Positions 27,663 through 62,265 of a DNA stretch of 64,000 nucleotides are shown here, in pieces (positions within the stretch are counted from its first letter, which is position 1; every line of letters starts with the position of its first letter). This stretch comes from Chloroflexota bacterium (lineage in GTDB: Bacteria; Chloroflexota; Dehalococcoidia; UBA2979): NCBI GenBank assembly GCA_002718395.1, contig PBEG01000016.1:1003-65002 (forward strand), written 5' to 3'. The notes under the pieces are model-generated. The model saw only the letters and a list, made by a program, of their open reading frames with translations. It was not told where the DNA came from and did not search any database. Both the position numbers and the translations under genes were made by a program.

Positions 27663-28895
27663 CTATTTTGATACATTAACTCTGTCTTCCGAAAAATATT
27701 TTTTCGATCCATAGACAATAGCTATAGATAGGACATATGAAAAAACGATGAATAATTTTTCGAAACCGCTATTTATAACTAACATTAGGAACATTGAGCC
27801 AATTATTGAAAATTTCACCCTCCAGTTTGATCTTATAGATAATACCCTTGATGTGATGACTGAAAATAAGAGCAAGAAAGTTAAAATACCAGCATCATAA
27901 GTAAAACCAGTTACAAAACCATCGCCACTGATTTTGCCCTCTCCTGATAGAAATAATCCGGTATTACCCCCAATGCCAGTTCCTAATATAAATTCTAGTA
28001 ATGTAAAATTTTTAAATAAAAGTAACCAGCTTTCTAACCTTTGTGAATCAGATGCATTGAAGTCGCTATAAAATTCCTGGATGGTCTCAAAGTTAATTAC
28101 AAATAGGAGAAGTGGAACAATTATGATCATTAACGAGAGAATTGCTCTCTTTATGTTTTTGAATGAAATTACATGAACAAATAGTATAAAAAATAGAGAC
28201 AAATATAGCGCTCTAGAAAAAGCCAAGAAGCTTGTAATGGCAAAAATTACTAATAAACAGTTTCTTGTTGATTTGCTTTTAAAATGACTGAAAAATAAAA
28301 TCCATGAGAAAGCAAGCAAGAAGTTAGCATAGTCAACGACAGTCCCGCCTATCCCGCCATTTGCTCTAAAGGTTACTAATGGGTTAGCACTCGTAAAATT
28401 ACTTCCGTATTCTCTGAGTATTCCAACATTTAAAATTTGTGGATGCTGGAGCACACAATAAAAAAACGTAATCAAAAAATATGCCACTAAATAATTTTGT
28501 GCAGAAATAAATATCTCTTTATCTCTTCTTGATGTTAAAAGTATTTGAAATAGATAAACCAACAAAAATGTTCTCAACAGAACATAGAGGCCTGAAATCA
28601 AGCCCATTACATCTCCAGTGAAAAACTGAAATAAAGCCTGAATAATGAAAATAATTGATATTGATACCAATAAAAGTGCTGAAGGTATATGTGTTTTTTT
28701 GTAAAAGTTTGAATCCAAAACAGTGATAAAAAGTAATAAAATTAGAAATTGTACTGCGGTTATTAACTGATTATTTATTGGCAAAAGAAAATCAAGCCAT
28801 GGTCTTAAAGCATTCAAAATAAATATAGCAGCTATTAAAGCTATGACGATTGTATCTGTTTTAAAAATATATTTACTGCTTAACGTCTTCATCAA
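27663..28895 (-). CDS. wzy: O-antigen polymerase/ligase-family membrane protein
   Basis: About 10-12 hydrophobic spans with a large periplasmic-loop region (Wzy_C-like: ...FSRALYLSLFF...). 410 aa. Confidence 0.6.
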   Translation of the reverse strand: MMKTLSSKYIFKTDTIVIALIAAIFILNALRPWLDFLLPINNQLITAVQFLILLLFITVLDSNFYKKTHIPSALLLVSISIIFIIQALFQFFTGDVMGLISGLYVLLRTFLLVYLFQILLTSRRDKEIFISAQNYLVAYFLITFFYCVLQHPQILNVGILREYGSNFTSANPLVTFRANGGIGGTVVDYANFLLAFSWILFFSHFKSKSTRNCLLVIFAITSFLAFSRALYLSLFFILFVHVISFKNIKRAILSLMIIIVPLLLFVINFETIQEFYSDFNASDSQRLESWLLLFKNFTLLEFILGTGIGGNTGLFLSGEGKISGDGFVTGFTYDAGILTFLLLFSVITSRVLSIRSNWRVKFSIIGSMFLMLVINSGFEKLFIVFSYVLSIAIVYGSKKYFSEDRVNVSK

Positions 28896-51949: not shown

Positions 51950-52498
51950 TTATTTTTTATCTATTAACTTAAATGTTTCACTGCTAATGCTATCTTCAAT
52001 ATGATTAAATGGGATCTCTGTTTTTATATCCTGATTCAATATACTCATTAGTACTAAAACTCTATTTTTACTAGTTTTAGTTAGAAATCTAGCATTTAGA
52101 TTCTTAAATATACTTTTATTGATTTCTACCTTTTCCCCCTTTTTATGTTCTTTCTTGATGTCCTTCAAATGACAAATATCATTATGATCTAAATATGAAC
52201 AAATCTTTTGAATTGCCTCCCTAGGAACAAAAGAAAGTTTATTGCCAAATGTGATTAGATTAGAGACTCCTACAGTGGAGTTTATTTTGTTCCAATCTTC
52301 TTTATATAGATGAACTGAAATAAAAATATATCTAGGAAACATTGGCTTGACTTGAGAAGGATGTGAGTCATTAATGCTACTCTTTGAAATCATTGGAAGA
52401 AGTGTCATAAAACCTTGATTTGTAAGGTTCTTTTGAGCCTCAACTTCACTTCCTGGCTTAGTATATGCGAGTAACCATTTTTTATTCTTATGATCCAA
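51950..52498 (-). CDS. rfaH: NusG-family operon-specific antiterminator, RfaH ortholog
   Basis: NGN domain KKWLLAYTKPGSE..LLPMIS..PMFPRYIFISV and KOW-like KKGEKVEINKSIFKNLNARF align well with E. coli RfaH. Confidence 0.75.
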   Translation of the reverse strand: MDHKNKKWLLAYTKPGSEVEAQKNLTNQGFMTLLPMISKSSINDSHPSQVKPMFPRYIFISVHLYKEDWNKINSTVGVSNLITFGNKLSFVPREAIQKICSYLDHNDICHLKDIKKEHKKGEKVEINKSIFKNLNARFLTKTSKNRVLVLMSILNQDIKTEIPFNHIEDSISSETFKLIDKK

Positions 52499-52553
52499 GA
52501 TGAGTTTATTGACTTAGTTATATCAAAGCTGTAAAAGTTATTAACTTAAGATA

Positions 52554-55415
52554 TTAAAAACTATTTACTGCTGCTGCTGCAAGTGCCATTTGATATATTA
52601 TTTGTGTGACTTCTGTAGTAGCTTGAATACTTGAGAACGGTTGTACCTGTAATGGTATAACAATTGTATCTCCAGGAGCTAGCTGTGACCCCCGTCCTCT
52701 AAAAAACCCTGATGACAACTGTGATGGTGAAACTACACTTCCGTCTGATTTAATCAGATAGAGATTGGCTTCATCAGCAAATGATGTTAATCCTCCACTC
52801 AAGCTAATATAGTCATTAATTCCTAGATCTTTTTTGTATAAGTGTGAATTTGACACAAAAACTTCACCGATGACTGAAATACTTTGAATCTTTTTAGGGA
52901 TATGTAGCTTATCTCCATCTTCAAGAATTATATCATCTATACCTCCTGATAATATTCCATCAAGATCAATAACTAGTCGGCCAAGAACTTCGGTATCATT
53001 GGTGTCTGATGATATTAGAGATGTAAGTTGACTTATAGAATTACTATCAAGAGAGTCTTTGCCTAGACCGCCAGCCTGACTCGATAGCAGTATTTTTCTT
53101 TTCAACTCATCTTGAGCACTTTTTAATCTGTCTTTTTCTGCTTCTTGAATAGCCTCTCTTTGATAGTAAGCTGCATCGATTGATCCAAATTCAGTTACTC
53201 CTCCTGCTCTTCTTATGAGCTCGCCCAATGTTTGATTCTCTGTTATTGGATAAGTACCTGGAAAGAAGACCTCTCCGCTAATTTCAACTGACTGAAAATC
53301 TGTGGCCAACTGTTTTAGTATTACAGTATCCATCTCATTTAACTTAATCTCACTTGCCTCTTTTATAGAAGCAAAGTTATTTTTACTGATAAATTTCTTA
53401 TCTTGTTGATTTATAGTATTAAGCTCAATTTCAGCCTGATAAGTTCCATTCTTGGGTCCTCCAGCCGCTTTGATAGCATCTGACAAGATCATTTGGTTTG
53501 TGAGTGGATATTGACCAGGGAAATGGACATTTCCATAAACTGAAACGAGACTGAGTTTTTCTTTAGTATCATTCCTCTCTATCAAATCTATAATTGGATC
53601 AAGTAACTCTTGCCTACATAAAGATGTAATTGTTTTTGATAACGCCTCGCTTTGATAGTTCTCATTCTGAAGCTCTATCCTTTCTCTCTCCAAAGTTTGC
53701 TGAAGAATTAAGAAATCTTCTGGCGTTGAAAGTTTTTCTAGATCTTCTATAGGAATTGATTTCTTTGGTCTGAATCCAGATTCTTCAATTATCTTAATAG
53801 CCAAATCTTCTGGTAAAGTGCAGTAATCATAAACACTATACTCATAGTATCTCATAATGTCTGATTCTGACATTTCCAAATCTGGTTGGGTTTGTATTTC
53901 ACCAATGCTCATTGTATTTTTCTTATCAAGAGCTAGCTTTTCCTCCATAAGTGATTTTCTAAGATAGGTCAAAGATGTCCATTCGTCCTCAAGAACCATC
54001 ATATTGGAATCCTTATCAAGAACATATCGATCTCGTATCAGCCTAGTTGTGATTTGATCAGGAGTAATAATGGAAGGAAATAGGATAATTTCATCATGAT
54101 CCTTTAGAGTCAAATTTTTACTAGATTCAGGATTGCTAAATAGATCCTCTAAATCTATTTGATGAAACTCAAATAGTTGTGATTTTTTATTTTTTCTTTT
54201 TACTAGGACATAATTCAAATCTGTCATCTCCAGTAAGTCATCTGAATCATTAAAGAGATCCAATAATTTCATTCCACTTTGCCAAGGATAGAATCCAGGT
54301 TCTTGAGCATGTCCAGAAATTAGGACGGCATTTTTAAGATTATTGGGAACAGAAAATACTGAAACAACATCGCCATTCATCATCTCAAAATTTTGACTAT
54401 CTTTTTTATTCATATCGATTGAAAGAAGGTCAAATGAATTATTGATAGTATTTATCCTAGTAATATTTGTTGAAGAGAGGTTTGCTTTTGGTTTTAGATT
54501 TCCAGAATATTTTAGAAGGTGCTCTAAGTTCTCATCATTTTTGAGTTCATATATTCCAGGCTTATTTACCTCTCCTCTTATCGCAACTGTTTTTCCAATT
54601 GGCTCGATGAAAACTACATCGCCTTGCATTAATCTAGAATCATTACTAGTATCTCCATTTAGTAGAAGGTCGTAAAAATCAAATGTTGTAACGACATTAC
54701 CGTTTCTTTTAAGCTTGATATTTCTTAGCGAACCTGCCTTGCCTATACCCCCGCTCTTCATTATTGCATTTGTAAGTGAAGATAAAGCACTTATGCTGAA
54801 CATGCCTGGATTACTGGCTGATCCCAAAACAAAAATATCAATTGCTCTCAGAGTACCCATTGTAACGCTTACTTGTGCACCGATTAGTTGATTAGAAATT
54901 ATATTCTTCAGTAGCTCTTTCAAATCTCCAAAAGTAATGCCAGCAACAAACACTGGTCCAATTTCTGGAAGAAAGATATCACCATCTCTAGTGACTTTAA
55001 GTTCATACTTACTGTTCTTGCTCCCAAAAAGAATTATCTTAATTGTGTCATTTGGTCCAATCATATAATCGGGTGGAACAGGAACATCCTTTAAAGGAGC
55101 AAATGTAGACAGATTGTTTTGAAAGTAACTATATCCGAAATAATCTAGAGGCTCATTTGGTAATCTTACATTAGGGGGGTTAACAAAATTCTTGCCTCCA
55201 GTATATCCATAATCACTATCTGAAAAGTCAATTGTCTCTTGCCTTTTTTCATCGATTTCATCCTCATCATCTGACTCAAAATCGGAAACTTGATCAGCGT
55301 CACTGTTACCTAATCCGCTAGCTAGGTTAGTTAGTATTGATGCCTCCATTTGAGCATAAGAATTCTGTCCTATAATCAAAACTAATAGCAAAATAATTTT
55401 GTAGTTAAGTTTCAT
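52554..55415 (-). CDS. wza: outer-membrane polysaccharide export protein (Wza/OPX family, giant multi-SLBB form, 953 aa)
   Basis: Signal peptide. Poly_export-like region (PPDYMIGPNDTIKIILFG) followed by several soluble-ligand-binding beta-grasp-like repeats. Comparable in size to Vibrio WbfF/OtnA. Confidence 0.75.
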   Translation of the reverse strand: MKLNYKIILLLVLIIGQNSYAQMEASILTNLASGLGNSDADQVSDFESDDEDEIDEKRQETIDFSDSDYGYTGGKNFVNPPNVRLPNEPLDYFGYSYFQNNLSTFAPLKDVPVPPDYMIGPNDTIKIILFGSKNSKYELKVTRDGDIFLPEIGPVFVAGITFGDLKELLKNIISNQLIGAQVSVTMGTLRAIDIFVLGSASNPGMFSISALSSLTNAIMKSGGIGKAGSLRNIKLKRNGNVVTTFDFYDLLLNGDTSNDSRLMQGDVVFIEPIGKTVAIRGEVNKPGIYELKNDENLEHLLKYSGNLKPKANLSSTNITRINTINNSFDLLSIDMNKKDSQNFEMMNGDVVSVFSVPNNLKNAVLISGHAQEPGFYPWQSGMKLLDLFNDSDDLLEMTDLNYVLVKRKNKKSQLFEFHQIDLEDLFSNPESSKNLTLKDHDEIILFPSIITPDQITTRLIRDRYVLDKDSNMMVLEDEWTSLTYLRKSLMEEKLALDKKNTMSIGEIQTQPDLEMSESDIMRYYEYSVYDYCTLPEDLAIKIIEESGFRPKKSIPIEDLEKLSTPEDFLILQQTLERERIELQNENYQSEALSKTITSLCRQELLDPIIDLIERNDTKEKLSLVSVYGNVHFPGQYPLTNQMILSDAIKAAGGPKNGTYQAEIELNTINQQDKKFISKNNFASIKEASEIKLNEMDTVILKQLATDFQSVEISGEVFFPGTYPITENQTLGELIRRAGGVTEFGSIDAAYYQREAIQEAEKDRLKSAQDELKRKILLSSQAGGLGKDSLDSNSISQLTSLISSDTNDTEVLGRLVIDLDGILSGGIDDIILEDGDKLHIPKKIQSISVIGEVFVSNSHLYKKDLGINDYISLSGGLTSFADEANLYLIKSDGSVVSPSQLSSGFFRGRGSQLAPGDTIVIPLQVQPFSSIQATTEVTQIIYQMALAAAAVNSF

Positions 55416-55553
55416 GTAATTATTTCAATAATACTTCTTTTTTTTAAATCAACTTTTTCGAGTGATAGTATCTTATATAAAGAGTATATAAAAACAAATT
55501 TATATTGTAAGAGATACACTTTTTTAGACATATCTGCTATCAAGAGGGACTCT

Positions 55554-57077
55554 TCAAGAGAAGTATTTATTTTTATATTCTTTAAACGTAATTATATCTT
55601 TTTCGAGCATGCATTGTTTCTTTATTGAGCTTTCTGTTTCAATATTTAGTTTTTTCCAATTGGAATTATTCTTTGAATTTAACTCAAGAAATTTTAGTTT
55701 ATTCTTATGAGAAATAGACTCTCCAAGACGAATAAATGATCTTTTTTCTATGAGTGATTCTAAGATCATAGCTGAGGGAGTTAAAGAAGGGTCATTGATT
55801 CTTGCTCTCATAAGCTCAATATTTTCAGAGTGTCCAATTTCTTTGTGGTTATCCAAAAAATTAGCTATTGGAAGCATTTCATCAAGAATTTCATTTGCCC
55901 AATCTGTTAAAGAAATATTCTTATCATTTCTTACTAATTTCAAATTTGGCTTCCTGCCCATCTTTGCAACTTTGATATCATTTTTAAATATCTGTTTTTC
56001 TTCTATTTTATTGATGGGATCACTTTCCTTTACGAACGCATAGAGCATGAAGATCTCTAGAAAAATTATAGTCTCTTCACTAATCCCAATTGGAGAATAT
56101 GGATCCAGATCCAGTGACCTTAATTCAATGAAATCAACACCGCCATTCAATAACTTCTTTGCAAAACGAACATCTGATTTATCTATACTCTTAGCTCTAG
56201 CAGCGGCATAGTACTCATCTTCTATTTGTAATTGGTTAGCATTAATTTGAGAGAGCGTATCCCCTGTTTCATCAAAAATCTTTGAAAATGAATCGCTTTT
56301 TTGATTAGTTGCTTTTAACAGATCAGTGGTATATGAATTCAATGAATTTGTTGAAATATTAATTTTCGCCCTCGATAAATTTTGATACCCATACTCACTC
56401 ATCCTGATTGAAGTTCCGTATGGGGAAAATAAAGTGTTTTTATCTAACTTGACAAAATCATCATTTAAACCTGATAAAAAATCTTTAGTTATTGAAGGAG
56501 AACAACCAAATAAATAGAGAATTAGCCAATTCATTCTTAGAACATTTCTAAGAATAGAGAAATAATTCTCAGATCTTAATTCAAGAGATTCTCTTTCATG
56601 ATTTTTAAATATAGAGCTTGTCCAAATTTTTCTTGGTAATGAATAATTAAAGTGGACACCGGAAATAGTTTGCATTAATCGGCCATATCTATGAGATAAA
56701 CCTTTTCGATACACATGCTTAAAGAGTCCTTTGCTTGAAGTTCCAAATTTTGCAATAGGTATGCCGCCCTTACCTATATAAAATGGCATACTAAAAGGCC
56801 AGAGCATTTCGTCATCAACACTAGAGTAAAAAAAATGATGAATATCTAAAAGAAAATTAAGTGCTTTTCTTTTGTCAGAAAAAGGTGGTGTAATGAATTC
56901 TAGTTGAGCCTCAGAGAAATCAGTTGTTATATAACTATTACATAATGAGGAGCCTAATGATTTTGGATGGGGTTCTTGTGAAATCTTTGAATTCAAATAT
57001 CTTAAGCTTTCTTTTTCAATTCCTACTTCTGAGCACTTTATATATGGCTCTATCTCAGATAATAGTTCCTGTTTCAT
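55554..57077 (-). CDS. gshA: glutamate--cysteine ligase (E. coli type)
   Basis: LGSSLCNSYITTDFSEAQLEFITP, YGRLMQTISGVHFNYSLP, VDFIELRSLDLDPYSPIGI colinear with E. coli GshA. 507 aa. Confidence 0.9.
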   Translation of the reverse strand: MKQELLSEIEPYIKCSEVGIEKESLRYLNSKISQEPHPKSLGSSLCNSYITTDFSEAQLEFITPPFSDKRKALNFLLDIHHFFYSSVDDEMLWPFSMPFYIGKGGIPIAKFGTSSKGLFKHVYRKGLSHRYGRLMQTISGVHFNYSLPRKIWTSSIFKNHERESLELRSENYFSILRNVLRMNWLILYLFGCSPSITKDFLSGLNDDFVKLDKNTLFSPYGTSIRMSEYGYQNLSRAKINISTNSLNSYTTDLLKATNQKSDSFSKIFDETGDTLSQINANQLQIEDEYYAAARAKSIDKSDVRFAKKLLNGGVDFIELRSLDLDPYSPIGISEETIIFLEIFMLYAFVKESDPINKIEEKQIFKNDIKVAKMGRKPNLKLVRNDKNISLTDWANEILDEMLPIANFLDNHKEIGHSENIELMRARINDPSLTPSAMILESLIEKRSFIRLGESISHKNKLKFLELNSKNNSNWKKLNIETESSIKKQCMLEKDIITFKEYKNKYFS

Positions 57078-57113
57078 ATTCTCTGTTTCATTATTTAAAA
57101 TTGACCCAAGTAT

Positions 57114-59309
57114 TTAAATACTCTCTCTTGGTGATGTACTAAATCCATTGAAAATCTTTTTGATGGACCATGATTTTTGGCTAATAATATCTAATTCATC
57201 TGAAGCATCGGTTACTAGGTTATATAAGCCTCCCCCTGACTCAACTTTTGTGCCAGCATCTTTTGTGAGAGGGCTCCAAGAATATCCTGTTTTTTGTCTA
57301 GTAGAAGAACTTATAAAAAATAAGTCCATTGGCATCTCAAAATAGATCCATTTATTAAAACTACCTTCTCCGACACACTGAGAATCACAATCAGTTAATG
57401 CTACTATTGCTCCAACCCTTGCGCCTGTATCAAATCTTCTGGATATATCTATATGTGCGCCAACATCTTTACCTAGAAATTTACCCATACTTATTTTTAG
57501 GCGTGTATCGTAAAAAGGAATGTCACGGTAATAAGACAGAAATCCCGTTACAGTCTCATAATCCTGAAAACCAAACCTCTGATCAAAGTCTCTTTGCTTT
57601 ACCCAGAAAGCCTCTAAACCTAATGCCCATCTTCTATTATCTGGTAAATATAAAACCTCTCCTCCATATCCTCCATACATCCATTCGAGATAACCAGCAG
57701 AGAGCTTAGCTTTTATGTTTGTGCTTAATCCAAATACATAATCAATAGCCATTCTTCTTAATCCTGACTCACCCTCAGTTAAATATAATCTTCTGTTTTG
57801 CCTGACATGATAAAGCTCTCCATCCGGAACATGATATGTATAGTCTCTATAGTTATTTGCGATATCAATTCCAATATCAGTCGTAAATGTCAATCCTTTC
57901 TTAATTGCATATTCAGTGTGAATTAGGGCCTCAAGCTGCCAGAAGTAAAACTTTTCTTGGTGTTGAAGTGTACCTAGAGCATGAGGCTTTATTTCCCAGG
58001 AAAAATTTGGGTATAAAAAATCATTTTTAATAACAGTTACGTCATTCTCGAGTGGTCTATAGATATCATAAGAAAACATTTCTTCTTCTAGAGGCTGATC
58101 TCTAACAATTCTTTTAATATCTCCTTTTCTTATGGTTGACCTTATTGTTTCAATACCCTGATCAATATTTATAATTGTTATATGTTCAATATTTTTTGGA
58201 GCATTACTTGCCAAAACTCTACTAGCCAAGTCAAGAGCTTGGGATGTCTTGCTGAATCTTCCCTGGCTTATCTCGGCTGCTAACTCATCCCCATTGAAAA
58301 AAATATTATGTGTTACAAAACCAACATTTGCCATCTCTCGAAATATCCTGTTAGTAAGAAATTTCTTCCAGTTATCATTTGTGGTGCTGTAGTTATCAAT
58401 ATTCGTATTTCTTAGTATTTCTGGCCCTAAAACTATGCTTGGGCGTCCTTTAAAATTAAGATTCGAATGTACAGATGCATTCAAGTAAATGGTGTTACCT
58501 CTAACATATCCTAGTGATAAATCTAATTTATCTCTATCACCTAGATTCATTCTGTAATTGAATGAATAATTAAATCTAGAGTCTAGTTGAAATTTATCCC
58601 CCGTTTCATCAAACCTTTTTTCAAGACCGATTATTCTTGAATAATTTGAAGAATCATATTCTAGCTTAAATGTGAAATTATCAATTGGGCTCAGATACTC
58701 TAAACCACCAAAAAATGCTGCGTCGCCTGAGAATAATCTGCCAAAGCTAACAAGACCGCCTAGAGTTCCTTTCTCGCCGCCTCTAATTTTTTTTGATTCA
58801 ATGAAATGCCCCAAAGGATTATTGAATGTATTTTTACCTGCAAGTCTCCCCCAACCCAAACCAAAGCTCAAATCAAAATTATTGATTTTCTTAGACCCTA
58901 CGATATATTCGCTTGCATATGCTCCTGTACCACCAAAATCAGTTATCCCCATTGCTATCTGGGGGAAATTATCTCTTTCTTTAAGTAACAAAAAACGAAA
59001 ATCAATACCTTTATCTTTCCATGTTTGCTGACTACCTTTCATGTAAGGCCTAGAGGTACCCTCGGTATATTTGAGCGTTGCTTCCATCCAGGGGAATATC
59101 TGGACTGATGAGTAGAGACGGTTATAAACTTCTTCTGAAGAGATTCCAAAAACAAACTCTCCATCATCTAAGAATCTGGCTGAGGGAGTTTCAATTAAAC
59201 CTATGCCACCATATGTCGATTGGAAATAAGGTGAACTATAATCATCTGCATACACCGTAATTGAAACGATGCAGCTAAAAAATATTAATAATGAAATTTT
59301 CTTAAGCAT
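57114..59309 (-). CDS. YjbH/GfcD-family outer-membrane beta-barrel protein (exopolysaccharide/group-4-capsule assembly)
   Basis: Signal peptide. YGGIGLIETPSARF..YSSVQIFPWMEATLKYTE..GITDFGGTGAYASEYIVGSK..FDLSFGLGWGRL and C-terminal PMDLFF..SWSPLTKDAG align with E. coli YjbH. Confidence 0.8.
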   Translation of the reverse strand: MLKKISLLIFFSCIVSITVYADDYSSPYFQSTYGGIGLIETPSARFLDDGEFVFGISSEEVYNRLYSSVQIFPWMEATLKYTEGTSRPYMKGSQQTWKDKGIDFRFLLLKERDNFPQIAMGITDFGGTGAYASEYIVGSKKINNFDLSFGLGWGRLAGKNTFNNPLGHFIESKKIRGGEKGTLGGLVSFGRLFSGDAAFFGGLEYLSPIDNFTFKLEYDSSNYSRIIGLEKRFDETGDKFQLDSRFNYSFNYRMNLGDRDKLDLSLGYVRGNTIYLNASVHSNLNFKGRPSIVLGPEILRNTNIDNYSTTNDNWKKFLTNRIFREMANVGFVTHNIFFNGDELAAEISQGRFSKTSQALDLASRVLASNAPKNIEHITIINIDQGIETIRSTIRKGDIKRIVRDQPLEEEMFSYDIYRPLENDVTVIKNDFLYPNFSWEIKPHALGTLQHQEKFYFWQLEALIHTEYAIKKGLTFTTDIGIDIANNYRDYTYHVPDGELYHVRQNRRLYLTEGESGLRRMAIDYVFGLSTNIKAKLSAGYLEWMYGGYGGEVLYLPDNRRWALGLEAFWVKQRDFDQRFGFQDYETVTGFLSYYRDIPFYDTRLKISMGKFLGKDVGAHIDISRRFDTGARVGAIVALTDCDSQCVGEGSFNKWIYFEMPMDLFFISSSTRQKTGYSWSPLTKDAGTKVESGGGLYNLVTDASDELDIISQKSWSIKKIFNGFSTSPRESI

Positions 59310-59460
59310 ATCTAATTTTAGTCAACTATAAATAATCTCACACAGTCTATAAGTTATATTAACGTTTTTAGAAGTGTCTAGATGATATTTAGTAACTAAT
59401 ACTTACCCAAATGTCTCAACTAAGGAGAAATCTTGGGCAAGTACCTAAGTAAGATATTGT

Positions 59461-60045
59461 CTAGTTACTTGACGAAGTAGTTGTACTACTAGTTGTGGTA
59501 GTAGTCGTAGTTACACCCGTTGTTGTTGTTGCTGCTGCTGATGTAGTTGTAGTAACTGGATCAGTTGTAGTAGCTGTTGTAGTTGTTGTAACTGGATCAG
59601 TTGTAGTAGCTGTTGTACTACTAGTAGTTGTTGTAGTTGCTGGCGTCGGTGTCGGCGTCGGCGTCGGTGTAGGTGTCGGCGTCGGTGTAGGTGTAGGTGT
59701 AGGTGTCGGCGTCGGTGTAGGTGTAGGTGTAGGTGTAGGTGTTACAGGATCATTGCCAGATGGGGTAGTGTATTCCGAAGAACCGCCACTAAAAAGTCCT
59801 AAAATTGCTCCAGTAATCGCAACCCAGACTCCAGCTCCAGCCACACCAGCTGCACCAGCTGATGATGAGCCGCCAGCTGCTTCTGCTGCTTCTGCTGCTT
59901 CTGCTGCTTCTGCTGCTTCTGCATTAGGATCTTCAAATTCCCCAGCTCCTTCTTCACCCTCTGATGCAATAGACTTAAAGCTTGCGCCAGATAGGACAAG
60001 AGTTAACATTGAGAAGTATGTACCGAGTTTTTTCAATAATTTCAT
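59461..60045 (-). CDS. YjbE/GfcA-like secreted Thr/Pro/Ala-rich low-complexity protein
   Basis: Signal peptide, (AEA)n block, Gly/Ala hydrophobic segment, (TP)17 linker, poly-Thr tail. Immediately upstream of the yjbH-like gene, as gfcA/yjbE is in E. coli. Confidence 0.6.
   Translation of the reverse strand: MKLLKKLGTYFSMLTLVLSGASFKSIASEGEEGAGEFEDPNAEAAEAAEAAEAAEAAGGSSSAGAAGVAGAGVWVAITGAILGLFSGGSSEYTTPSGNDPVTPTPTPTPTPTPTPTPTPTPTPTPTPTPTPTPTPATTTTTSSTTATTTDPVTTTTTATTTDPVTTTTSAAATTTTGVTTTTTTTSSTTTSSSN
59552..59617. repeat. 36-bp direct duplication (gtaactggatcagttgtagtagctgttgta ...) encoding a repeated TATTTDPVTTTT unit
   Basis: Two near-identical copies at 59552..59581 and 59588..59617. Confidence 0.8.
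59642..59743. repeat. hexanucleotide tandem repeat (GGTGTC/GGCGTC/GGTGTA)x~17, encoding (Thr-Pro)n on the minus strand
   Basis: Directly visible: ggcgtcggtgtcggcgtcggcgtcggtgtaggtgtcggcgtcggtgtaggtgtaggtgtagg... Confidence 0.9.
59877..59923. repeat. 9-bp tandem repeat (GCTGCTTCT)x5 encoding (Ala-Glu-Ala)n on the minus strand
   Basis: gctgcttctgctgcttctgctgcttctgctgcttctgctgcttctgca. Confidence 0.9.
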
Positions 60046-60254
60046 CTGTGATGATCCTTTAAATTAGTTTGTATTTTAATCTACCCACCCCAGGTTTTCA
60101 TATACCTAAGGTGTAAGTTTTAATCAATTAGCATTGTTTGTAAACAACATTTTCACTTTTTTGCATAAAGTTACATGTGTTAGTTGAAGAGGATTATAGT
60201 TGAAACTAAAAGTATTAAATACCCTTTTATTGAGTTATTTTTTTAGCCATAAAA

Positions 60255-60857
60255 CTAAGCTTTATCATCAAATGGGCGAATTGACATTCTTTTCACTATA
60301 TATTCTTGAAGATTATTTATGTCTTTTTCAGTCAAAGCACCATCAAAAACTCCAGTGAATAATTGATCAAAATCCTGAACTACACTTGTAAAGTATATTG
60401 TTAAAGGTTTCATCATCTCTTCAGAAATGCGATAGAGCGTTCTTCTTGAATCGGCAGGATCTTTTTCTCTTATAAAAATCTCACTATCAACGCCAATAGA
60501 GAGTACTTTTCTGAAATTTGCGAATGTAGTTGCTGGAAAAATATCACAAATAGAATCATATAAATCATCTCTACTAACCCCATTATCACCTCTGAATTGA
60601 AACAAAATAACTGAACAAATAATTTGAACTTGGAGATAGCCAGATCTGATGTAATTGGATAGTTTTCTAGGCTGAAGATCTCTATTTGATAATCCTAAAG
60701 CTCTTATAGTGGCGGCATATGCAAGAACCTCTATGCCTTGATTTGTATCCTTGAAATCAATTGTAGACTGATTGACAGCTTCTGATAGACTGCCCTTTTT
60801 CTTGTTGATCTCCCATTTCTCAATACTTTTATTTATCTGGCTGACTTTATTGTTCAT
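60255..60857 (-). CDS. hypothetical protein, possible C-terminal winged-helix (MarR/PadR-like wing REKDPADSRRTLYRIS)
   Basis: No signal peptide or TM. Only a weak wHTH-like pattern in the C-terminal half. Confidence 0.25.
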   Translation of the reverse strand: MNNKVSQINKSIEKWEINKKKGSLSEAVNQSTIDFKDTNQGIEVLAYAATIRALGLSNRDLQPRKLSNYIRSGYLQVQIICSVILFQFRGDNGVSRDDLYDSICDIFPATTFANFRKVLSIGVDSEIFIREKDPADSRRTLYRISEEMMKPLTIYFTSVVQDFDQLFTGVFDGALTEKDINNLQEYIVKRMSIRPFDDKA

Positions 60858-60927
60858 TATTCAATTAAAATAAATATTTTTATTGGATATAATCTATTAC
60901 TCTTTAGTAAATATCTCAAATGGATAA

Positions 60928-61275
60928 ATGGATATGTTTAAGAAAAAAATATTTTTAATTGTTTCATTGATAACTTTCAGCTCAATGACTTTCGCTGAAT
61001 GCAATTACCCAAAGAAAAAGTTTGATATTCCCTCAGGGAAAAAAGCAACTGAAGCCGAAATGGTTGAAACCATGGGTAAAGTAAAACAATTTCAGGCTGA
61101 TCTAGGGGTTTACAGAATATGCTTGGATAATGAGTTAGCCAAAGTCTCTCCTGAGCTTGAGTCATATGAGGAAATTGAGAGAATGAATGCTCAAAAATAC
61201 AATGCCTCAGTCGAAGACGAACAAAAAATGGCTGAAGAATGGGGCGAAGCTGTCAGGGCCTTTAAATCAAAATAA
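60928..61275 (+). CDS. small secreted/periplasmic hypothetical protein (115 aa, signal peptide, 2 Cys)
   Basis: N-terminal MDMFKKKIFLIVSLITFSSMTFA signal-like segment. Helical, charged mature part. Divergent from the 60255..60857 gene. Confidence 0.4.
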   Translation: MDMFKKKIFLIVSLITFSSMTFAECNYPKKKFDIPSGKKATEAEMVETMGKVKQFQADLGVYRICLDNELAKVSPELESYEEIERMNAQKYNASVEDEQKMAEEWGEAVRAFKSK

Positions 61276-61293
61276 TCAAATAAGGATCAAAAA

Positions 61294-62265
61294 GTGTCTA
61301 AAACTGTGACCATCACTGGTGCAGCTGGTCAGATTGGATATCAGCTCGCATTCAGAATTGCTTCTGGTCAACTTCTAGGAGCAGATGAAAAAATTAATTT
61401 AAGTCTTTTAGAGATTACCCCTGCATTAGATGCGCTGAAAGGAGTTGCTATGGAACTAGAAGACTGTGCTTTTGAGTCGCTAGTTGAGATTACTATTTCA
61501 GATGATCCTAATGAAGCATTTAAAGATAGTGATTATGCATTTTTAGTTGGCGCTAAACCCAGAGGGCCAGGAATGGAGAGAAGCGACTTATTACAAGAAA
61601 ATGCAAAAATCTTTTCAGCTCAAGGAAAAGCAATAAATGAAAATTCATCAAGAGATATAAAAGTACTCGTTGTAGGAAATCCAGCTAATACAAATGCTTT
61701 GATCGCAATGTCAAATGCACCAGATATTGATCAAAGTGCATTTACTGCAATGACGAGACTTGATCACAACCGTGCGCTTGCGCAGCTTGCATCTAAATTA
61801 GGTTGTCATTCAAGCGAACTAAGCAATATGACTATTTGGGGAAATCATTCAACAACTCAGTATCCAGATGTGAGTAATTTGAAGCTAGAAGGTGAAAAAA
61901 TATTAAGTAGACTTGATCACGCATGGATAAAGGACAACTTTATTCCGCGTGTACAAAATAGAGGCGCAGAGATTATTAAAGCCAGAGGTTTATCTAGTGC
62001 AGCTTCTGCTGCATCTGCGGCAATTGATCATATGAGAGATTGGACATTGGGAACAAAAGACAATGATTGGGTAAGTATGGCTATACCTAGTGATGGATCA
62101 TATGGCATCAGTAAAGGCATCATCTATTCTTTTCCTGTGACATGCGAAAGTGGATCATATTCGATTGTACAAAATCTTGAAATCGATAATTTTAGTAAGG
62201 AATCAATGGAAATAACTGAAACAGAGCTTCTCGATGAAAAGGCAGCAATTGAGCATTTGCTGTAA
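61294..62265 (+). CDS. mdh: malate dehydrogenase (NAD, LDH-like family 2). GTG start with AAGGA Shine-Dalgarno 7 nt upstream
   Basis: [15 protein letters not shown]-binding and substrate Arg/His (DHNRA) motifs. 323 aa. Confidence 0.9.

Follow-up and report, generated by a model that had tools for sequence, protein, structure and literature searches.

An expanded, repeat-encoded YjbE/GfcA-like protein with in-frame length alleles beside a yjbH homologue

The stretch of DNA analysed here, 64,000 nucleotides (nt) of contig PBEG01000016.1 (hereafter the window), encodes on its minus strand, at 59461..60045, a small protein dominated by threonine and proline repeats, the Thr/Pro protein. Its gene occurs as co-existing length alleles, which differ without any frameshift at two of four tandem-repeat arrays. 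In its sequence architecture and its position directly 5' of a yjbH homologue, the protein is a counterpart of Escherichia coli YjbE and GfcA, not a proven member of their family. What is new is an expanded, repeat-encoded YjbE/GfcA-like protein in a reduced yjbE-yjbH module; the kind of system is known. For GfcA-D and YjbE-H, the upstream half of the group 4 capsule and yjb operons, no mechanism has been assigned, and GfcA and YjbE are the least understood among them.

The gene, its family and its repeats

Taken from the list of open reading frames (ORFs), the ORF at 59461..60045 (minus strand) encodes 194 amino acids (aa) from an ATG start, stop codon included. Judged by its orthologues and by codon-level purifying selection, it is a genuine gene. 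An AAGGA Shine-Dalgarno-like site can be read in the sequence at 60055..60059 (minus strand), 9 nt before the ATG. Over 20 codons of the conserved core, relatives differ from the window by 9-13 synonymous and only 0-3 non-synonymous changes; since synonymous changes so far outnumber the others, the minus-strand frame is fixed and the core is under strong constraint. The plus strand also has an ORF of 190 aa (59495..60067), which was dismissed as an antisense shadow because the synonymous-site variation tracks the minus-strand frame. G+C content rises to 0.47-0.54 across the repeat gene, against roughly 0.33 in its surroundings, as its Thr, Pro, Ala and Gly codons would lead one to expect.

Relatives were retrieved with the non-repetitive N-terminal 101 residues as query; the first output consisted of fragments only, low-complexity words dominating. 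In a scan of one genome per species, eight loci encode a relative, most of them titled as metagenome-assembled genomes (MAGs) or single-amplified genomes of uncultured marine Gammaproteobacteria; a ninth contig, L019, holds the core motif alone, at the contig start. In six of the related loci the protein is complete, 180-233 aa long and built alike, and the gene is placed between orf200 and yjbH in the related loci. The relatives have in common a signal peptide, a SIASEGEE..AFDDPN motif, a variable acidic stretch and the invariant core GAGVWVAITGA(I/V)L.LFSGG.

An exhaustive HMMER profile search over 1.84 billion representative proteins returned 32 matches at E <= 0.001. All belong to this family except P0048, a spurious match to a eukaryotic repeat protein. 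When the profile was limited to the conserved blocks, 43 matches were obtained, each shorter than 120 aa. None of the three alleles (194, 197 and 187 aa) was present in the protein collection on exact look-up. Neither a Pfam search nor a PDB profile search with the Thr/Pro protein gave a match, a scan of viral contigs found no relative, and an Rfam scan of 57-64 kb returned two sub-threshold chance matches only, so that no RNA gene accounts for the region. Matches to the NCBIfam models GltJ, SslE and TonB (E 7e-5 to 0.016, far below the cut-offs) were discarded as Pro/Thr composition matches. On inspection, PEP-CTERM and GlyGly-CTERM sorting signals were excluded too, since the protein ends in TTTSSSN and its hydrophobic segment lies within the chain.

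Several peculiarities of the database record deserve mention. Of the family entries (P0001-P0050), nearly all break off at the repeats or continue into unrelated sequence, some have adapter-like peptides at their end (..SLIHI, ..CLLYTSDAADE), and complete members are essentially missing from the 5.8-billion-protein collection. Such repeat genes systematically break short-read assemblies, and their complete sequences are nearly absent from protein databases. Two loci, L012 (PAJD01000004.1) and L019 (PALS01000043.1), show the gammaproteobacterial gene order and carry the MAG labels Candidatus Neomarinimicrobiota and Methanobacteriota archaeon, respectively. They are probably mis-binned, which could account for the 'archaeal' YjbH sequences mentioned in PMC8346858. 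The MAG cluster2_bin.245 holds two copies of the module on two contigs (L013 and L016), with Thr/Pro proteins of 221 and 233 aa and each with its own YjbH, gshA and OPX (outer-membrane polysaccharide export protein); either two strains were co-binned or the locus is duplicated.

The protein is built, in order, of a signal peptide, an acidic low-complexity segment, a Gly/Ala-rich hydrophobic helix, a (Thr-Pro)n or (TP)n spacer and a poly-Thr tail. The predicted Sec signal peptide covers residues 1-27 (59965..60045, minus strand) and consists of MKLLKK, a hydrophobic core and SIA|SE; the small residues at -3 and -1 are conserved in the family. Cleavage is predicted after SIA27, leaving a mature chain of about 167 aa. 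The 194 aa that an earlier note on this DNA had given as the mature length are thus those of the precursor. Lys, Arg and His are absent from the mature chain, which contains 15 Asp/Glu and is 34% Thr; the precursor, with 30% Thr, equals GfcA in this respect, and the protein is free of Cys. AlphaFold2 (AF2), run on family fragments only, places helices at residues 2-18 and 69-86 and nowhere else, with low confidence in the remainder and a mean pLDDT (predicted local distance difference test) of 59. We take it to be a small, strongly acidic and intrinsically disordered protein.

The Gly/Ala-rich segment described in the earlier note, GAAGVAGAGVWVAITGAILGLFSGG, is present at residues 64-88 and is the best-conserved part of the protein, GVWVAITGA being invariant across the family. 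Its conserved core, GAGVWVAITGAILGLFSGGS (residues 70-89; 59779..59838, minus strand), looks like a glycine zipper and stands out by its invariant columns, its codon changes and the second predicted helix. A GxxxGxxxG pattern (G79, G83, G87) is readable in it, as a motif only, and the Pfam glycine-zipper models (Gly-zipper, Rick_17kDa_Anti) do not match at E <= 10. The 19-aa Kyte-Doolittle mean peaks at 1.87 over residues 67-85, hydrophobic enough for a helix or for the membrane anchor that had been suspected. That this short segment is under strong purifying selection while the rest of the protein turns over indicates which residues matter.

Repeats were called with Tandem Repeats Finder (TRF), and TP units were counted by codon. 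All three in-frame arrays listed in the earlier note were recovered; a fourth had been overlooked. The TP array, (ACN CCN)17 or (TP)17, lies at 59641..59742 and is polymorphic, with 17 or 12 units. TRF reports it as a 6-bp unit in 15.8 copies (59648-59742) and, with a better score, as a period of 30 bp in 3.1 copies (91% match), a higher-order unit. In the acidic N-terminal region, a 9-bp unit (GCA GAA GCA) repeated 5.2 times with 100% match encodes (AEA)5 at 59876..59922. A 36-bp unit repeated 2.2 times with 95% match (59537..59617) encodes ATTTDPVTTTTT within the Thr-rich tail, which spans residues 136-194 (59464..59640) and does not differ among the close alleles. The additional array is a 9-bp unit (GCT GGT GCA, encoding Ala-Gly-Ala) in two copies at 59844..59861, part of the Ala/Gly run that directly precedes the helix; it is again polymorphic, with two or three copies. 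All four arrays, like the gene, read on the minus strand. The longest exact self-match of the gene is 41 nt at offset 30, a length reached by none of 500 synonymous-codon shuffles (mean 19, maximum 40); the duplications therefore exist at the DNA level, beyond what amino-acid composition would produce.

Each repeat period is a multiple of 3, in five orthologues as well as in the window gene. Every orthologue has (TP)12-19, and their acidic regions carry small independent duplications such as (ESSSN)2 and (EAFDDP)2. Their tails are built from other tandem repeats: (TTG)n, with a 9-bp unit in 10-17 copies, in L011 and L015; a 27-bp unit in six copies in L013; and an 18-bp unit in nine copies in L016. 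Between species, as the aligned loci indicate, the plan is constant and the tail repeats are completely turned over.

Length alleles among near-identical strains

Alleles were taken from Tara Oceans assembly contigs whose YjbH protein is 100% identical to that of the window. The sample is small and drawn from short-read assemblies only, with four complete gene copies in total. The complete gene encodes 197 aa in L001, 187 aa in L002 and L006, and 194 aa in the window, bearing out the proposal of a length-variable locus.

Two sites account for these differences. Read by codon, the TP array has the pattern aaaacb-aaacb-acbbcd in L001 and the window, against aaaacb-acbbcd in L002-L006, so that precisely one higher-order block of 30 bp separates the 17-unit from the 12-unit allele. 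Of the 9-bp Ala-Gly-Ala unit, the window has two copies, and L001, L002, L006, L022 and L023 have three. These 9-bp and 30-bp changes are the only indels across 12.6-12.9 kb of aligned sequence, which otherwise shows 2-3 substitutions (99.97% substitution identity). The 12-unit form was seen in five independent assemblies and the 17-unit form in three, and the sample SAMEA2622690 yielded both (L004, L023).

The comparison of copy numbers that the earlier note had called for therefore gives differing counts among assembled contigs, 12 against 17 for the TP array and two against three for the 9-bp unit, and all changes are of whole repeat units, as its claim of variation without frameshift required. 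Frameshifting on/off phase variation is not indicated, given the repeat periods and observed indels of 9 or 30 bp. Of the three arrays expected to vary, the TP array does; (AEA)5 and the 36-bp duplication are constant where spanned. The expected microsatellite expansion of the TP array holds as to its changes in length and fails as to their step, which is one 30-bp block and not the 6-bp unit. Whole units are most simply gained and lost by replication slippage or by unequal recombination between exact direct repeats of 38-41 nt.

Variation is concentrated in this gene. With the contigs pooled, six of ten variant sites fall inside its 585 bp (P = 1.6e-6), about 30-fold denser than in the flanks. 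Three of the four single-nucleotide polymorphisms (SNPs) in the gene are non-synonymous, and E91G (L002), P40T (L006) and T112M (L023) are linked to particular alleles. Many contigs break off within the gene, either at the AEA or TP array (three of them inside the former) or a little 5' of the latter. Look-ups via the neighbouring orf200 and mdh proteins gained partial alleles and no further complete ones; a metagenome scan with a 21-nt flank pattern returned two unrelated chance genes, missed L005 by 4 nt and added no alleles. The locus illustrates how in-frame repeats make strains of abundant ocean bacteria differ in gene length at the border of a glycan island.

A proposed role beside YjbH and its alternatives

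Immediately downstream of the Thr/Pro gene lies its likely functional partner, a yjbH/gfcD homologue of 731 aa (57114..59309, minus strand) that matches Pfam PF06082 with E 2.6e-162 over profile positions 2-657 of 658. It is 30% identical to E. coli YjbH over residues 1-694. The two genes are separated by a 151-bp spacer, and the same arrangement recurs in seven related loci. The E. coli proteins used for comparison were read from K-12 (L009, L010): YjbE, confirmed at 80 aa where about 80 had been cited, is encoded by the first gene of yjbEFGH, and GfcA (YmcD, 101 aa) by the first gene of gfcABCDE-etp-etk, the group 4 capsule operon.

YjbE, GfcA and the Thr/Pro protein share a signal peptide, a low-complexity region, a hydrophobic Gly/Ala/Val stretch and a Thr tail, in this order. 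All three are predicted to be unstructured, and each is encoded by a same-strand gene at the head of its operon, 5' of yjbH/gfcD and in a polysaccharide-export context. The low-complexity region of YjbE and GfcA is made of Ser, Ala, Thr and Gly, whereas the N-terminal part of the Thr/Pro protein is strongly acidic. The latter is also 2-2.4 times longer, by virtue of its (TP)12-19 spacer and a repeat-encoded Thr tail of about 60-100 aa. Compared with the yjb and gfc operons, the window locus lacks yjbF/gfcB and yjbG/gfcC, so that the Thr/Pro gene directly adjoins yjbH. Finally, the Thr/Pro gene is polymorphic in length, while E. coli gfcA is length-stable in the sampled genomes. The resemblance to YjbE pointed out in the earlier note thus stands for the architecture and for the position 5' of a full-length YjbH, and not for sequence homology, which is undetectable by Pfam, HMMER or hhalign.

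YjbH/GfcD proteins combine an N-terminal FapF-like barrel with a second, polysaccharide-porin-like barrel (PMC9603273, PMC8346858); for the window YjbH this double-barrel fold was carried over from its E. coli homologues via the full-length Pfam match. On balance, we think it probable that the Thr/Pro protein is a Sec-exported acidic chain that partners the double-barrel YjbH and bears a stalk of adjustable length, possibly glycosylated. The chain would be exported in full through its Sec leader: we infer this because the mature part, without Lys, Arg or His, offers no signal for cytoplasmic retention. It would then be handed to the outer-membrane YjbH with its FapF-like N-terminal barrel. In a substrate or anchor model, GVWVAITGAILGLFSGG would be placed in or at that barrel, and the glycine-zipper hydrophobic segment would anchor the chain or drive its self-association. 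The extended TP/poly-Thr stalk, perhaps O-glycosylated, would reach into the capsule layer, and slippage or unequal exchange between the 38-41-nt direct repeats would alter it by whole units.

A bolder version, which we regard as decidedly unlikely, makes the YjbE-like protein and YjbH a minimal two-part module of these streamlined marine gammaproteobacteria. Here the disordered chain would be the polypeptide substrate of the FapF-like barrel, threaded to the surface, held by the glycine zipper and carrying or anchoring capsule polysaccharide, the length of the stalk setting the geometry of the capsule layer and differing between co-existing strains.

A number of results weigh against the proposal of a YjbE-like exported stalk. 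Sequence comparison does not connect the protein with its enteric counterparts: Pfam PF11106 (YjbE) matched none of eight family members at E <= 10, hhalign gave a probability of 0.2% with YjbE (aligning only GVWVAITG on GVALAATG) and of 2.7% with GfcA, and the exhaustive HMMER search reached no enteric YjbE or GfcA. In a control, PF11106 recognized E. coli YjbE (5e-33) and left its accepted paralogue GfcA unmatched at E <= 1. The failed test carries little weight because GfcA fails it as well, and this shows that profile methods capture such low-complexity proteins poorly. Likewise, tblastn of E. coli YjbF and YjbG against the window and L011-L019 found neither at E <= 1e-5. As for the adjustable stalk, two of the four arrays, (AEA)5 and the 36-bp duplication, are identical in all contigs spanning them, and each variable site shows just two alleles, all from short-read assemblies. 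For E. coli gfcA, 3,661 genomes matched, and in 24 rows taken at even intervals along their ranking the gene kept the same length; the comparison family therefore does not vary in length as a rule. For O-glycosylation, no oligosaccharyltransferase was recognized, the sole candidate in the window being a sub-threshold Wzy_C ORF (27663..28895). Lastly, if the hydrophobic segment acted as a stop-transfer helix once the signal peptide had been removed, the tail would be left in the cytoplasm, which would rule out both export through YjbH and O-glycosylation, and its Kyte-Doolittle value lies above the classical threshold of 1.6.

This last point leads to an alternative in which the Gly/Ala helix is an inner-membrane anchor, with the N-terminal segment in the periplasm, the Thr/Pro tail in the cytoplasm and the repeats as neutral filler drifting in length. 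The hydropathy of residues 67-85 and the AF2 helix at 69-86 agree with it, and so does the RefSeq name of GfcA, 'threonine-rich inner membrane protein'; the two alleles per site and the largely non-synonymous SNPs are consistent with relaxed constraint. However, with no Lys, Arg or His and 15 acidic residues in the mature chain, the positive-inside rule provides no retention signal and the acidic flanks favour translocation. The gene is moreover strictly paired with that of an outer-membrane protein, YjbH, and the TP array is kept at 12-19 units in all eight orthologues despite the turnover of the tail repeats, suggesting that its length is constrained. Because of the charge pattern, the pairing with YjbH and the conserved TP range, we rate the inner-membrane anchor, though the main rival, below the exported stalk, as unlikely.

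The length differences themselves invite two further explanations. They could be an artefact of short-read assembly, a single real allele being collapsed or expanded at its repeats in the de Bruijn graph: all alleles stem from such assemblies, many contigs break at the AEA or TP arrays, and the family is represented in the database almost entirely by truncated or chimeric sequences. Yet the final megahit k-mers (k119-k127) exceed the longest exact repeat of 41 nt, which makes an artefactual collapse unlikely. Both TP forms recur in independent assemblies, the 12-unit form in assemblies made with different assemblers; the 9-bp difference spans only 18-27 nt and poses no assembly problem; and the alleles are tied to distinct SNPs. 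We therefore consider an artefact very improbable. Alternatively, the gene could be a contingency-type locus under diversifying selection, its stalk varied to evade phages or grazers that recognize the capsule, as part of a strain-specific glycan island. The roughly 30-fold density of variants in the gene speaks for this, as do the lineage-specific tail repeats, the location where interspecies identity drops from mdh, orf115 and orf200 to YjbH, gshA and OPX, and the remainder of the window, a 58-kb surface-glycan cluster. On the other hand, only two states per site were seen, and nothing points to frequent or reversible switching. Compared with classical contingency loci the gene has short, imperfect arrays, and none of their periods can give an on/off frameshift. 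To us this explanation looks improbable, strongly so.

Genomic setting and comparison with known systems

Gene order around the locus is kept. On the coding strand, orf200, the Thr/Pro gene, yjbH, gshA and OPX come one after another; ahead of them are mdh and orf115, which read divergently from the opposite strand. Conserved orf200 (60255..60857, minus strand) has neither a signal peptide nor a family match and is located 209 bp upstream of the Thr/Pro gene; several contigs of the window's population also break within it. Conserved orf115 (60928..61275, plus strand) is a small protein with a signal peptide. In amino-acid comparisons of the window (51950-62265) with L011-L019, the closer loci share 71-90% identity in mdh, 74-82% in orf200 and mostly 72-90% in orf115, with L017 lower throughout; for YjbH, gshA and OPX of the related genomes the values are only 40-56%, 40-48% and 34-52%, respectively. 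By these values, the Thr/Pro gene marks the edge of a fast-diverging glycan island.

Just 3' of its stop codon, within the spacer before yjbH, a hairpin with a stem of about 14 bp is predicted (59398..59445, minus strand; minimum free energy -34.7 kcal/mol, z -2.5 against shuffles). It lacks a U tract, no terminator-like site was predicted, and the orthologues do not share its sequence. As a stabilising or attenuating element of the mRNA, it may govern how much of the small protein is made relative to YjbH.

Further downstream, gshA, for glutamate-cysteine ligase (55554..57077, minus strand), is found between yjbH and the OPX exporter, an odd spot for a gene of glutathione synthesis; the same placement is seen in 7 of the 8 related loci that reach past yjbH. 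In the OPX protein (52554..55415, minus strand; 953 aa), a single Poly_export domain is accompanied by five SLBB stretches and, at the C-terminus, by a sub-threshold match to GfcC (residues 860-925, E 0.0046); no Wza_C domain was reported. Class-2 OPX proteins carry an integrated GfcC module (PMC9603273). The window OPX may be of this class, with a fused GfcC module replacing the absent yjbG; the weak GfcC-like C-terminus would then account for that absence.

Beyond OPX follow a NusG paralogue, a MarR-type regulator, Wzz, rml genes and an ABC exporter, together with many sugar-modifying enzymes, glycosyltransferases and a weak Wzy_C protein. From these annotations, the Thr/Pro gene heads a surface-polysaccharide cluster of about 58 kb on one strand, in what we take to be an uncultured marine gammaproteobacterium. 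The Wzy_C domain is common to polymerases, ligases and PglL-type transferases. For the Wzy_C-like ORF of 410 aa (27663..28895, minus strand), whose score of 25.4 bits stays below the cut-off of 31.7, three roles are conceivable: ligase, PglL-type O-oligosaccharyltransferase or, more likely, O-unit polymerase.

Surface proteins with in-frame variable-number tandem repeats (VNTRs) are well known, for example the staphylococcal SD-repeat proteins and the streptococcal alpha C protein. Like them, the Thr/Pro gene has tandem repeats in its coding sequence that change by whole units between close strains, shifting the length of a linker without frameshift. In contrast to them, its product has no folded domain on the stalk, being all stalk except for one hydrophobic helix, and only two states per site were seen.

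Secreted glycoside hydrolases, for their part, contain Pro/Thr-rich linkers. In streptococci, according to one report (PMC12041528), extracytoplasmic Ser/Thr-rich disordered regions are O-glycosylated. The TP/poly-Thr tail resembles both in composition and in its predicted extended disorder. The window locus differs from the streptococcal case by its Gram-negative envelope and in that no glycosyltransferase or O-oligosaccharyltransferase can be assigned to the Thr/Pro protein.

The FapF/FapC system offers a parallel to the pairing with a barrel: a disordered, Cys-free chain that is exported (in our case by prediction) is encoded beside a FapF-like barrel, without any similarity of the Thr/Pro protein to FapC or other amyloid subunits. 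For YjbH/GfcD, it has been suggested that they secrete a polypeptide by which the capsule is stabilised or anchored (PMC9603273, PMC8346858). The marine family lends support to this view of the small protein as a client of the YjbH/GfcD barrel. It represents a natural reduced version of the enteric operons, in which the Thr-rich protein and the double-barrel YjbH alone are retained side by side.

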